Positions 56,231-63,070 are shown, counted from the first letter of the stretch. The stretch is DNA of 64,000 nt from an uncultured Alphaproteobacteria bacterium (GCA_944393195.1 CALXZG010000003.1:35223-99222); one strand, 5' to 3'. The notes: generated from the letters alone by a model not told the origin. Translations and numbers: made by a program.

Positions 56231-59200
56231 ATGCGTGAGAGATTAAGCTCGTCCGAGCAATATGCTAAGAAAAGTAATCGCAACCTTTTGTTAATGGGGT
56301 TGGGATTGCTTATTCTGTTTATTGTCGCTTTGGTTTTGATGTCAGGCGGCGAACAGACGGTACAGCAGCAATCCGAGCTTAATTGGAACTCGAATGACTT
56401 TGAAAAAGCCGTTCAGGGGGATGACGGCGGCGTTGGGTTCGCCCGCGGAACGGCCGAATTGACGGCTAATCCGCCGGCTGTTGTGATGGATGGCGTCGTG
56501 TTGGGGGCTCAGGCCGAAGCGATTGTCACGTTAACGGCCAAAAATGCACCGATTGAATTCATCGGATTAGAGATGCAAGAGTCCGTTGCCGGTGGCTTTT
56601 TGTTTAACGGAACATGTACCCCGAACTTAAAATTAGCGGAGAATGATTCGTGTACGGTGCGGGTGTCTTGGAATCCGACATCTTTGCGGCAGATTCAAAA
56701 TACGTTAAACATTCGGTGGCGGGAGGATAATCCGGCTGTTTTCCGTGAAAATACGCTGGCTTTACAATTACGGGCGCAATCGACGGATTCTAAGGATTGT
56801 GTCATTTGTGAAAGTCCGTGCAAGGATGAAGAAGCCGTTGAAAAGAAAATGGCGATGGGTTTGGACGGCCAATTGTATGAAGTAGACGATGATGGCTATG
56901 TGACGATTAACGGCAAACGCTATAAGGTAACGGAAAACGGTTTAATTGTTGATGAAAACGGCAATATTATCGGTATTGTTGTGCCGGATAAGATTCCGAT
57001 GGGGTTGGATAACAAGGTCTTAGGAACGATTTCGAAAACACGGGATGTGTTGGCGGCGGACGGAACGGGACTCGGGCGGTTGTTGGGGGATGATACGATT
57101 GCGGATTCCTCTTTGAAAATCCTTGGTTCGGCGATACCGGTTGTTTCGGTCATGGATACGCAAGGACGGGTTATCGGAAAGACGTTGCCGGACGGAACGG
57201 TGATTGACGGAACGAATACGGTTATCGGGCGGCCTTTGGTCGACGGATCGGTTGTTGATTTAAACGGAGCGGTCATTGGGTCGTTGCGGCCGTGGGGCTT
57301 GGTCATCAACTTTACGGGGGATATCATCGGCGGTATTTTACCGGACGGCAGTATCGGTAATGCCCAGAATCAGATTATCGGTACGATTAAACCGACTGGA
57401 TTGGCGGTTGATCCGCAGGGCGAATTAATCGGTGGTGTCATTCCGCAAGGTGTGGCTGTCGGGGCTTCGTGTAAAGCTTTGGGCAGTATTGCTTTAAACG
57501 GTCAAGTAACGGACAGTTTCGGTCAAAAAATCGGTAAGGTCTTATTGGACGGATCTGTCGTTGATGACAAAATGAATGAGCTTGGGTCGGCTGTGGCGCA
57601 AGGGCTTGTCATCAATGAAAAAGGAACCGTTATGGGGTTTGTGAACTCGGAAGGAAAAGCGGTCAATGGTTCGGGGCAGGTTATCGGGTGTGTGAATCCG
57701 GATGGGTCGGTTGCCGCCGGGAACAAGCCTGTCGGCGCGGTTATGGCCAAAGGTCGCGTAATCGGTCAAGGATGCAGCGTTATCGGTTCCGTTTATCCGG
57801 ACGGGGCGGTGATGAATGCCGCCGTGGAAGCGATCGGTCGGGTACGGGCGGACGCCTATGTAACCAATGCGAATAACCGGATCGTCGGTGTTGTTATTCC
57901 GCGCGGAACGGCGATTGCCGAAGGGTGTCGGTTATTGGGGTTAATTACCTTAGACGGTCAGGTTGTTGATACGACCGGTATCAGCGTCGGGTGTGTCACG
58001 ATGGAAAAGCAGGTTGTGAACCGGCAACAGGAAGTAATCGGTGCGGTTGCAATGAAGGGGCAGGTTGTGGATGCTTCCGGTAAAATCATCGGGCGTGTTC
58101 GGTTAGACGGAAAGGTTATGGATGCGTCCGGAAAGGTTATCGGATGTGTTAATCCGGACGGAACAGTGACGGCTTTGGACGGTAAGACGGTTATTGGCTC
58201 TGTCGTTAAGAATGACGGTGGGGTTGTCTTGGACGAAAACGGCGATCCGTCGGGATGGACGGTTGTCGGTAATGAAGTATTTGATGCGAACGGCAACAAA
58301 GTTGGTGATTTGCAACCGAACGGTTGGGTGACGAATAAAAATGGTGAAATTATCGGTGTGATTCCGCCGGATGGTGTTATTTTCTCTAATGATGGGTTAA
58401 TTTTAGGGCGGTATACGCGTAAAACCGGTGTGGCGGTGGATTTATCGGGAGAACGGTTAGGTGTTGTGTTGCCGGACTTTACGGTCGTCAATTTGGACAA
58501 GACGAAAATCATTGGTGCTTTGATTGCGGATAAAACGCCGTTTATGGATATGGCGGGGCAATATTTGGCGACAATGAACGTTGAAGGGATGCTTGTCGGG
58601 TCGGCCGGTGAAACCATTGGTGCGATTAAGGCTGACGGTTCCGTTATTGACAGAAGCGGCCGGACAATCGGTGTCCGTATTCCGCAAGGTAAAGTGCTTT
58701 CGGTTATTGGGCGTGAAGTGGGCTCGGTCAATGACAAAGGGGAAGTGTTATCGCCGGCACAGACGGTTATCGGGCGTGTTTTAGCAAACGGGTTGGCTAT
58801 TTCCAATGATGAAACGGTATTGGGTGGGGTTTTCCCGGATGTTTCTCTGCCGATCGGGCCGTCGGGTGTTATTGGGGCAATGACGTACCAAGGGACCGTC
58901 AATGATGCAAAAGGCCGGAAAATCGGTGTTATTTCTCCGTTCGGAACAATTATCGGTAACAAAAACGAAATTTTGGGACGGTTGGTGCGAATCGGGCCGT
59001 ACACGGATTTATCCGGTCAATTGATGGGATGGGCTTCTTTTAAAGGGGAGTTGAATGATCGGACGGGTAGCAGTATCGGAACCTTGACAATGGCCGGGTT
59101 GGCGTTGGATGCGGATAATGTGGTGTTGGGATCTTTGATTCCGCGCGGCGTAGTCGTTTCCGACAGCGGGGCTTATCTGGGGCCGATCGCGCCGAATGCG

Positions 59201-63070: not shown

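Follow-up and report, generated by a model that had tools for sequence, protein, structure and literature searches.

A giant VirB10 with a conserved array of 17-residue repeats, predicted to be all-beta, in a type IV secretion locus of an uncultured alphaproteobacterium

We analysed a stretch of 64,000 nucleotides from an uncultured Alphaproteobacteria bacterium (GCA_944393195.1, CALXZG010000003.1:35223-99222; hereafter the window), in which a gene on the + strand, giant virB10 (56231-63070), encodes a VirB10 protein with a long array of 17-residue repeats between its inner-membrane anchor and its outer-membrane domain. This architecture had been proposed from the sequence alone (the original prediction), and it holds at every point tested. 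Purifying selection acts on the core of the array, whose slots are individually conserved, and each repeat unit is confidently modelled as a single beta-hairpin. We consider it probable, with some reserve, that the protein is a subunit of a chromosomal, rvh-like type IVA secretion system (T4ASS), in which the array would act as a rigid periplasmic scaffold or collar module.

The gene is one uninterrupted open reading frame (ORF) of 2,279 codons, with neither a stop nor a frameshift in an ORF scan, and its product has a computed mass of 236.9 kDa and a pI of 4.8. The start is supported by a Shine-Dalgarno-like AGGGG site 8 nt upstream and by the N-terminal sequence MRERLSSSEQYAKKSNR, which agrees with the consensus of the orthologue family and is conserved among orthologues. 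The gene and its parts are as follows (positions in the window, with amino acids (aa) of the product in brackets; AF2, AlphaFold2; pLDDT, predicted local distance difference test).

56231-63070, + strand: giant virB10, whole gene; a single ORF, with the architecture shared by orthologues
56231-56341, + strand: cytoplasmic N-tail rich in Lys and Arg (aa 1-18) and single transmembrane (TM) helix (aa 19-37), from hydropathy and AF2
56342-56455, + strand: juxtamembrane linker, disordered and poorly conserved (aa 38-75), from AF2 and column entropy
56456-56785, + strand: ASH/PapD-like immunoglobulin (Ig) beta-sandwich (aa 76-185) with invariant C129 and C141, from Foldseek, AF2 and Pfam
56786-56842, + strand: conserved Cys cluster STDSKDCVICESPC (aa 186-204), disordered in AF2, with invariant C190 and C193, plus C197
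56942-61180, + strand: core beta-hairpin array (aa 238-1650, ~83 slots of 17 aa), from the 17-residue period, units, Pfam and AF2
61181-61900, + strand: distal YD-like hairpin module of variable length (aa 1651-1890), from orthologue lengths and TIGR01643/RHS_repeat
61901-62095, + strand: helical segment rich in Gln, Arg and Lys (aa 1891-1955), from sequence and AF2 helices at aa 1897-1920 and 1928-1934
62096-62695, + strand: TrbI/VirB10 C-terminal domain (aa 1956-2155), from PF03743, PDB sequence matches, Foldseek and helices
62696-63067, + strand: disordered acidic tail (aa 2156-2279), from composition and pLDDT below 50

BLOSUM autocorrelation over aa 220-1880 has peaks at lags of 17, 34, 51, 68, 85 and 102 residues. 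An iterated ungapped profile identified 74 in-register units across aa 238-1889, compared to 1.7 +/- 1.3 units in shuffled arrays; units were counted by chaining matches to an ungapped position-specific scoring matrix, which replaced a 17-column HMMER hidden Markov model that under-counted them (51 overlapping or partial matches). The spacing between scored units is mostly ~17 or ~35 residues, corresponding to one or two degenerate units, and AF2 hairpins begin at ~aa 205. Consequently, we place the array at ~aa 205-1890, a length of 1,686 aa or ~99 slots of 17 residues, about three quarters of which are recognisable units. As slot counts, the earlier estimates of 90-100 units and about 1,660 codons were right, and the consensus first written down by eye is the one that the profile returns (xVVDxxGxVIGxVxPDG). 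Perfectly spaced units form runs of up to 13, and autocorrelation gives the array a super-period of 51 residues (three units); a five-unit, 85-residue super-period is absent at long lags.

The repeat is not unclassified; it belongs to the Bflower_2/Bflower families of the Pfam beta-flower clan (PMC10584680). The array matches PF21785 Bflower_2 at E = 1e-87 in 15 stretches (289.9 bits against a gathering score of 38) and PF21784 Bflower (70.3 bits against 25), and the suspected similarity to DUF3659 is significant (PF12396, E = 1.7e-19, 69.9 bits against 24.8). The beta-flower tip motif, [DNEQ]xxG, is visible in the units: of 76, 53 have D or N at position 4 and 56 have G at position 7. A PDB sequence search found no solved relative of the array. 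The predicted drift toward YD/RHS-like units is real near aa 1748-1798, but as a family match it is marginal: the YD similarity is confined to aa 1750-1781, where TIGR01643 scores above its cutoff (25.6 against 15.8 bits) and Pfam RHS_repeat scores below (14.8 against 22). No RHS-core family matched giant VirB10 at E <= 0.01 in NCBIfam or Pfam. An RHS/YD cocoon was considered and rejected, as the protein has neither the core domain nor global fold similarity.

We modelled the protein with AF2 in two overlapping parts, aa 1-1200 and aa 1101-2279, using an alignment of 34 orthologue sequences. The first model has a mean pLDDT of 84.5 and a predicted template modelling score (pTM) of 0.77; the second has a mean pLDDT of 74.9, with most of aa 1101-1800 above 90. 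Across the array, the models place two strands in each unit, mostly at a pLDDT of 85-95, in the order 3-residue strand, DxxG turn, 5-residue strand and PDG turn, so that each unit is modelled as one beta-hairpin, the 'petal' of a beta-flower. The modelled array is all-beta, without helices. Covariation pooled over slots independently supports such a hairpin and its connection to the next unit as a meander, with within-unit pairs at positions 1-9, 2-10 and 4-8 and pairs to the following unit at 14-1', 14-3' and 16-1'; repeat-averaged mutual information shows nothing beyond adjacent units. A pTM of 0.77 over 1,200 residues favours a defined overall arrangement over loose beads. Foldseek related the array to teneurin, TcdA and Tc toxins at probabilities of at most 0.18 (for the teneurin and Tc shells, TM-scores normalised by query and by target, TMq and TMt, are at most 0.10), and to phage tail fibres in BFVD at a likewise low probability.

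Upstream of the array, the only strongly hydrophobic segment of the protein is aa 19-37 (Kyte-Doolittle maximum 3.12), which lies within an AF2 helix at aa 8-37; giant VirB10 thus has the cytoplasmic N-terminal tail and single TM helix of VirB10 proteins. Canonical VirB10 then continues into a short Pro-rich periplasmic linker. No such linker is found in giant VirB10 (7 Pro in aa 38-237), and its usual position holds the ASH domain and the 1,686-aa array instead. The residues directly after the TM helix (aa 38-70) have a pLDDT below 50. The 'Cys-containing beta-rich domain' of the original prediction is real: it occupies aa 76-185 with invariant C129 and C141 and is followed by the cluster DCVICESPC with invariant C190 and C193. 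We placed this domain, for which Foldseek gave no query coordinates, from the strands in the AF2 model (aa 76-185) and from a weak match to Pfam ASH (aa 80-161). The PDB matches of the aa 1-1200 model are dominated by ASH/PapD-like Ig domains over ~110-130 aligned columns, the best being CEP192 (6fvi, TMt 0.65), HYDIN (2e6j, TMt 0.72) and pilus chaperones. Further conserved Cys residues occur within the array, at aa 414, 487, 515, 566, 588 and 639.

Downstream of the array, the C-terminal domain matches PF03743 TrbI over nearly the whole profile (E = 1.8e-31, 109.9 bits, cutoff 35; aa 1959-2151 aligned to positions 2-188 of the 188 in the profile). In a PDB sequence search, this region matched ComB10, X. 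citri VirB10, CagY, TrwE and TraF, and IcmE was not listed at E <= 1e-3. The NCBIfam equivalog model for T4SS_VirB10, NF038091, scored 103.3 bits and did not reach its cutoff of 220, which marks the protein as a divergent VirB10 rather than an equivalog. The modelled fold, at an only moderate pLDDT, is that of solved VirB10, ComB10, CagY, TrwE and TraF (Foldseek; 6gyb_C, TMt 0.63; 7o3j_A, 0.60; 6x6s_AY, 0.60; 9ngw_A, 0.65), and it also resembles the DotG dome and chains of the F-plasmid outer-membrane core complex. Two long antenna-like helices, at aa 2059-2082 and 2099-2127 (nt 62405-62611) with a low-confidence loop between them, stand where the VirB10 antenna is expected. The acidic tail, put at about 125 aa beforehand, has 124 aa, a pI of 4.05 and 26 Asp/Glu against 6 Lys/Arg, and is disordered in AF2; its last ~20 residues are semi-conserved as R...PVxP+...LF, with a family consensus of ...RxxxPVLPKxxxxxxLF.

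The architecture is shared by a large family. A homology search returned 809 proteins at E <= 1e-5, of which we examined the best 120 clusters. There are at least 120 orthologue clusters; the best 120, down to 30% identity, all carry Bflower and TrbI domains. Nearly all of these are 2,060-2,610 aa long (one has 1,598 aa); their named members are 'Alphaproteobacteria bacterium' metagenome-assembled genomes (MAGs), probably of gut origin, and three GTDB species representatives carry the protein. An exact-sequence look-up of the window protein found no identical entry, and the closest cluster, P0001, is 99% identical and likewise 2,279 aa long. In 119 full-length orthologues, the length of the core array (aa 238-1650) has an interquartile range of 1408-1419 aa, a minimum of 1376 and a maximum of 1585. 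Most of the length differences in the family come from the distal module (aa 1651-1890), which varies from 137 to 572 aa and in which alignment occupancy drops to 0.33-0.43 at aa 1701-1800.

Individual slots of the array have kept their identity. Between orthologues, units in the same slot are 0.36-0.76 identical, compared to ~0.23 for units in other slots and 0.26 for units within one protein. Column entropy is 1.82 bits in the array and 1.74 in the ASH domain, against 2.47 in the tail and 3.07 in the juxtamembrane linker, the highest of any region; at the non-consensus positions of the units it is 2.34 bits, compared to 4.05 when slots are pooled. Relative to the orthologue at locus L001 (84% identical), nonsynonymous divergence (dN) is 0.068 in the core array, 0.078 in the ASH domain, 0.032 in the VirB10 domain and 0.28 in the tail. 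The ratio of dN to synonymous divergence (dS) is ~0.03 in this comparison and indicative only, because dS is saturated; saturation made the ratio relative to L002 unusable. These comparisons support a structural rather than a variable role for the array.

The nucleotide sequences of the units share 60-79% identity in stretches of no more than 55 nt, spaced at multiples of 51 nt. DNA comparison and Tandem Repeats Finder (TRF) found no near-identical DNA repeats within giant virB10, and the only tandem repeat reported by TRF is a weak one of 2.3 copies with a 51-nt period (61478-61597), inside the distal module. Neither an artefact nor a frameshift, either of which had been named as fatal to the proposed architecture, was found: the frame is intact, the DNA units have diverged and there are at least 120 orthologue clusters. 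Two antisense ORFs of 348 and 199 aa run through the array (57958-59004 and 60604-61203, - strand) without support, and we take them to be by-products of a strong G-rich codon bias. The GC skew around giant virB10 is ~+0.3. Across the window, the skew is strong and uniform, at ~+0.25 to +0.35, at 8000-28000 and 38000-64000, wherever genes lie on the + strand, and it falls to ~0-0.1 across 28-38 kb, where they lie on the - strand. At the related locus L007, a 1,489-aa antisense ORF (4321-8790, - strand) is annotated in an NCBI MAG instead of the true gene on the + strand; annotation pipelines can therefore miss or mis-strand members of this family.

We now turn to the genes around giant virB10, which identify the kind of machine to which it would belong. 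Its neighbours are the following.

52690-53343, + strand: VirB8 paralogue a (PF04335, E = 7.4e-8)
53428-53604, + strand: lipoprotein of 58 aa (MTKYLAIILGVSALILAAC..., lipobox LAAC, from sequence), in the VirB7 position between the VirB8 paralogues
53626-54357, + strand: VirB8 paralogue b (PF04335, E = 1.1e-13)
54452-56194, + strand: enlarged VirB9/CagX of 580 aa with a C-terminal SPOR match (PF03524, E = 9e-13)
63092-64000, + strand: VirB11-type ATPase, truncated by the window end (Walker A GGTATGKTT; ribosome-binding site and ATG)

Rvh systems are marked by duplicated VirB4 and VirB9, multiple VirB6, the lack of VirB5 and scattered gene islets. In the window, giant virB10 lies between virB9 and virB11 in the order virB8-virB7-like-virB8-virB9-virB10-virB11. 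This order is kept in L004 (35% identity), where housekeeping genes follow, and in L002; an ORF of 58 aa is found at the same position in L004, L005 and L006, and the VirB11 position in orthologous loci is held by the T2SSE family. The R. typhi rvh islet reads rvhB8-II / rvhB7, rvhB8-I, rvhB9-II, rvhB10, rvhB11 (PMC4676284). The giant virB10 locus has the same islet order, B8-B7-B8-B9-B10-B11, including the duplicated VirB8. The SPOR match of VirB9 (PF05036, E = 7.7e-4) scores 20.2 bits, just below the 21-bit cutoff; SPOR domains bind peptidoglycan, and at 580 aa the VirB9 is about twice the usual size. The rest of the window holds chromosomal housekeeping genes, including bamA, lptFG-lptD, pnp, nrdD, folD, a surA-like gene and a P-type ATPase gene. 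Directly upstream of the secretion genes stand six consecutive ORFs (46321-52721, + strand; 313, 227, 594, 236, 239 and 534 aa), with starts that resemble signal peptides by eye and several Ala/Gln-rich products. None has a credible match in Pfam or NCBIfam, and in L004 the equivalent position also holds ORFs without recorded Pfam matches. These could be VirB5-like, pilus-associated or secreted components.

The array module is also found in other proteins. Using aa 238-1437 as the query against 1.84 billion representative proteins (E <= 1e-3), we obtained only 270 matches, ~16 of them giant clusters and the remainder shorter. A domain scan covered 17 of these shorter proteins (658-1,888 aa): 14 carry a C-terminal TrbI domain and the other three an N-terminal RcpC/CpaB domain; in sequence terms, all 17 join the array to subunits that link inner- and outer-membrane parts of a machine. 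Two of them, P0292 (821 aa) and P0288 (914 aa), are encoded immediately downstream of dotH/icmK in Dot/Icm loci, with DotM, a DotL-like gene, an OmpA-type DotK and DotI as neighbours, and IcmF and DotU near P0292. P0292 matches Legionella IcmE/DotG at E = 2.9e-66; it combines a TM helix and a Cys patch with a highly regular array whose super-repeat is 51 residues long. A Cys cluster thus stands directly before the array in two families, DCVICESPC in giant VirB10 and GCCNPCPC in the DotG-like P0292 (aa 117-124). The gene for P0293, of the RcpC form, is directly upstream of genes for a Tad secretin, a CpaF-type ATPase, TadB/TadC and TadE. With an intermediate form of 1,580 aa, followed by VirB11, the array occurs as a graded series of lengths, of which the giant VirB10 family is the extreme.

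The search with the VirB10 domain returned matches of 430-490 aa at 45-60% identity. We rejected these as normal-sized nearest relatives, since each one that we examined proved to be the final ORF of a giant locus that is split. The nearest truly small VirB10s are the P0190 group (~495 aa, 35-40% identity), which have a lipoprotein-type signal and the gene context virB10-virB11-virD4. They appear to share the Cys...Cys motif of the ASH domain (pairwise E = 1e-4), which suggests that the ASH domain is ancestral and that the array was inserted later, between it and the VirB10 domain.

How unusual is such a protein? Giant VirB10 is less singular than first thought, because it belongs to a large conserved family and because CagY exists. 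The original prediction named DotG of Dot/Icm systems as the only comparable case, but H. pylori CagY is also a VirB10 homologue with a large repeat region, of at least ~1,900 residues (mapped to residue 1909; PMC9371333). Like giant VirB10, CagY is a giant T4ASS VirB10 with large internal repeats N-terminal to the VirB10 domain, and the C-terminal domains match in sequence and fold. The CagY repeats are alpha-helical modules, according to Delahay 2008 as cited in PMC9371333; the repeat region is unresolved in cryo-electron microscopy and was suggested to reach the collar (PMC9371333; bioRxiv 10.1101/2023.03.22.533729). Recombination between DNA repeats adds and removes CagY units, whereas the units of giant VirB10 are beta-hairpins that have diverged in DNA sequence and whose number in the core is fixed. 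The array of giant VirB10 is thus not a CagY-type repeat region, with its alpha-helical modules and near-identical, recombining DNA repeats.

Legionella DotG/IcmE (1,048 aa) likewise has a TM helix, a repeat region and a C-terminal TrbI/VirB10 domain, and the repeat regions of DotG and CagY have been proposed to form a periplasmic collar (bioRxiv 10.1101/2023.03.22.533729). The repeat had been thought to look different from that of DotG. The parallel is closer than this, because the 17-residue Bflower_2/DUF3659 hairpin repeat is also found in P0292 and P0288, uncultured DotG homologues encoded in Dot/Icm loci. In contrast, the Legionella DotG repeat described in the literature is a 10-residue motif that is variable in number, recombining and modelled by AF2 at low confidence. 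Giant VirB10 also differs from DotG in its type IVA context (VirB8, B9, B11) and in its array, which is 3-4 times that of the hairpin-bearing DotG homologues, has a core of fixed length and is preceded by the ASH domain; it does not lie after dotH/icmK in a Dot/Icm locus, nor is IcmE its closest match, so that it is not a DotG/IcmE.

With the canonical VirB10/TrbI proteins (A. tumefaciens VirB10, pKM101 TraF, R388 TrwE, X. citri VirB10 and RvhB10), giant VirB10 shares the N-in bitopic topology, a C-terminal barrel with antenna, the position between virB9 and virB11 and the rvh-like islet order, but the solved chains are ~395-406 aa at full length compared to ~1,900 periplasmic residues here. 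Beta-flower proteins (PF21784, PF21785; clan CL0395) are single domains of ~96 residues with 4-6 petals, which often enclose a C-terminal helix (PMC10584680). The giant array matches their models far above cutoff and has the hairpin petal with its [DNEQ]xxG tip, but it strings ~99 petals together without interruption and without helices. The RcpC/CpaB-array fusions (P0293, P0313, P0314) carry the same array on a periplasmic subunit, and the P0293 gene adjoins an outer-membrane secretin gene; they differ in serving another machine, in their reversed order (RcpC, then array) and in their size of ~800-900 aa. At 2,279-2,609 aa, the giant VirB10 family exceeds the sizes of CagY and DotG in the cited papers. 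Database names for its members are 'TrbI/VirB10 family protein', 'DUF3659 domain-containing protein', 'YD repeat-containing protein' and 'hypothetical', and literature searches for VirB10 with DUF3659 or YD repeats, for DUF3659 and for type IV secretion systems (T4SSs) in RF32 gut Alphaproteobacteria found no description of the family. Repeat-bearing, enlarged VirB10s were therefore already known from CagY and DotG, and what is new is the all-beta, fixed-number and slot-conserved beta-flower/DUF3659 module.

The N-terminus of giant VirB10 is anchored in the inner membrane by its one TM helix, and its TrbI/VirB10 domain shares its fold with the part of solved T4SS core complexes that makes up the outer-membrane cap and pore. 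According to the reading that we favour, the array between them would be periplasmic and a rigid, ordered beta structure. Multiplied by the stoichiometry of the VirB10 ring, it could form a very large scaffold of fixed geometry, as a collar, cage or set of struts, that couples the inner-membrane complex to the outer-membrane core and sets the geometry of the machine. VirB10 rings are 14-fold in the minimal systems that have been solved, and the Cag outer-membrane cap has the same symmetry (PMC9371333); assuming 14 copies at 172.5 kDa per array, the added periplasmic mass would be ~2.4 MDa. The variable YD-like module next to the VirB10 domain may be an adjustable adaptor, and the acidic tail, with its conserved end, a partner-binding tail. 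The role is argued by analogy, as the same one has been proposed, and never resolved, for the repeats of CagY and DotG. Expanded T4SSs such as Cag and Dot/Icm owe part of their size to enlarged VirB10s, whose repeats are only guessed to be the collar. The equivalent region of giant VirB10, with ~1,900 periplasmic residues, is larger than theirs. Confidently predicted, fixed in length and conserved slot by slot, it offers a tractable system for learning what VirB10 repeat regions build, and the gene serves as a marker of rvh-like secretion in a group of uncultured Alphaproteobacteria for which MAGs are the only source.

Several points weigh against this reading. VirB4, VirB6, VirD4 and pilins were not found in the 64-kb window, which therefore shows no complete machine. 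The models are compatible with two shapes of the array, stacked, closed five-fold flowers or an open superhelix of ~3 hairpins per turn, and neither confirm nor exclude the beta-solenoid or fibre suggested beforehand. By a rough estimate, ~99 hairpins set end to end are several-fold longer than a normal periplasm, and the array must therefore be folded, tilted or arranged around the circumference. Outside the consensus positions, the units (2.34 bits) are barely more constrained than the disordered tail (2.47 bits), so that specific surface interfaces are not proven. Finally, if the gene splits seen at L006, L007 and L013 (see below) are real, covalent continuity from the inner to the outer membrane is not essential.

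A broader form of the scaffold reading is possible, and we offer it only tentatively: the array may be an unrecognised periplasmic spacer or collar module, common to VirB10 of rvh-like T4ASSs, DotG and the RcpC/CpaB connectors of Tad systems. In the VirB10 family, the array would have expanded to a fixed ~83 + n hairpins, and the copies from all subunits of the VirB10 ring would build a multi-megadalton cage or collar of defined height. That one module occurs both in DotG homologues and in a Tad pilus subunit suggests a general element for bridging the periplasm. The protein also provides a first concrete cellular context for the beta-flower/DUF3659 repeat, to which the cited papers assign no function. 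If the broader reading is true, it would yield the first confidently foldable model for the collar of expanded T4SSs, and it would point to an exceptionally large machine or an atypical envelope in these bacteria.

We weighed these periplasmic roles against four other explanations. The array might instead be a surface-exposed module that binds host or prey or varies antigenically, threaded partly outside the cell and gaining and losing units. There are precedents in the CagY repeats and in the DotG variable region, for which a surface or host-interaction role was proposed and within-species size variation reported (PMC6761968). The distal module, with its YD-like units, spread of 137-572 aa among orthologues and only detectable DNA tandem repeat, would suit such a role, and the named relatives are all Alphaproteobacteria MAGs, probably of gut source. 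We regard it as unlikely, because the topology confines the array to the space between the TM helix in the inner membrane and the side of the VirB10 domain that faces the periplasm, the core of ~83 out of ~99 slots is constant in number and under strong purifying selection, and the DNA units are too diverged to be substrates for recombination; moreover, no DotG-like size variation within a species is seen, the 99% identical P0001 being of the same length.

Equally improbable is an array that binds the cell wall or glycans, with hairpins that anchor or space the machine in the wall. Its support is the sub-threshold SPOR match of the adjacent VirB9 (20.2 against 21 bits) and a weak, local resemblance in the Foldseek 3Di alphabet to TcdA, whose CROP region is a hairpin repeat. 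Against it, the units do not have the conserved aromatic residues typical of choline- and cell-wall-binding repeats, the Foldseek probabilities are at most 0.16, and the array has no PDB sequence match.

A third explanation is that the array protein and the VirB10 domain are separate polypeptides, by cleavage at ~aa 1800-1890 or by a split of the gene, and that their fusion is incidental. AF2 confidence and alignment occupancy do fall around aa 1800-1890, and three related loci carry separate ORFs: L006 (4710-11473) has a Bflower ORF of 1,764 aa and one of 490 aa, with the frame change at ...GCAATTTGATTGG...; L007 (4264-11302) is split into 1,916 + 468 aa; and L013 (2310-10347) into 1,266 + 932 + 448 aa. 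In each, one ORF boundary lies just upstream of the VirB10 domain. These are either recurrent indel errors or real split genes. At least 120 clusters, as well as the window gene, are single ORFs, the splits show frame changes compatible with sequencing or assembly indels, and the split-off VirB10 pieces (P0121, P0136, P0153) have no TM helix of their own, all of which makes separate products quite unlikely. The last alternative, that the repeat was collapsed or expanded during assembly or that the gene is a pseudogene without function, is effectively refuted: long repeat arrays in probably metagenome-derived sequence are a classic spot for mis-assembly, but the repeats here are too diverged at the DNA level, the length agrees within ~1% in 119 orthologues from independent assemblies, the frame is intact, synteny is conserved and dN/dS is low (with the caveat of saturated dS given above).

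Three further observations concern other genes of the window. An anaerobic ribonucleoside-triphosphate reductase, NrdD, with an ATP-cone is encoded at 29481-31538 (- strand), which fits an anaerobic lifestyle. An ORF of 1,084 aa (40972-44226, + strand) combines an LptF/LptG permease (aa 6-360) with LptD_N and LptD (aa 407-1020); it would be an unusual fusion of inner- and outer-membrane lipopolysaccharide transport, or else the result of a missed stop or frameshift. At 5111-7837 (- strand), an ORF of 908 aa matches the polymorphic-membrane-protein repeat of Chlamydia (PF02415, E = 2e-6) and may encode an autotransporter-like surface protein.

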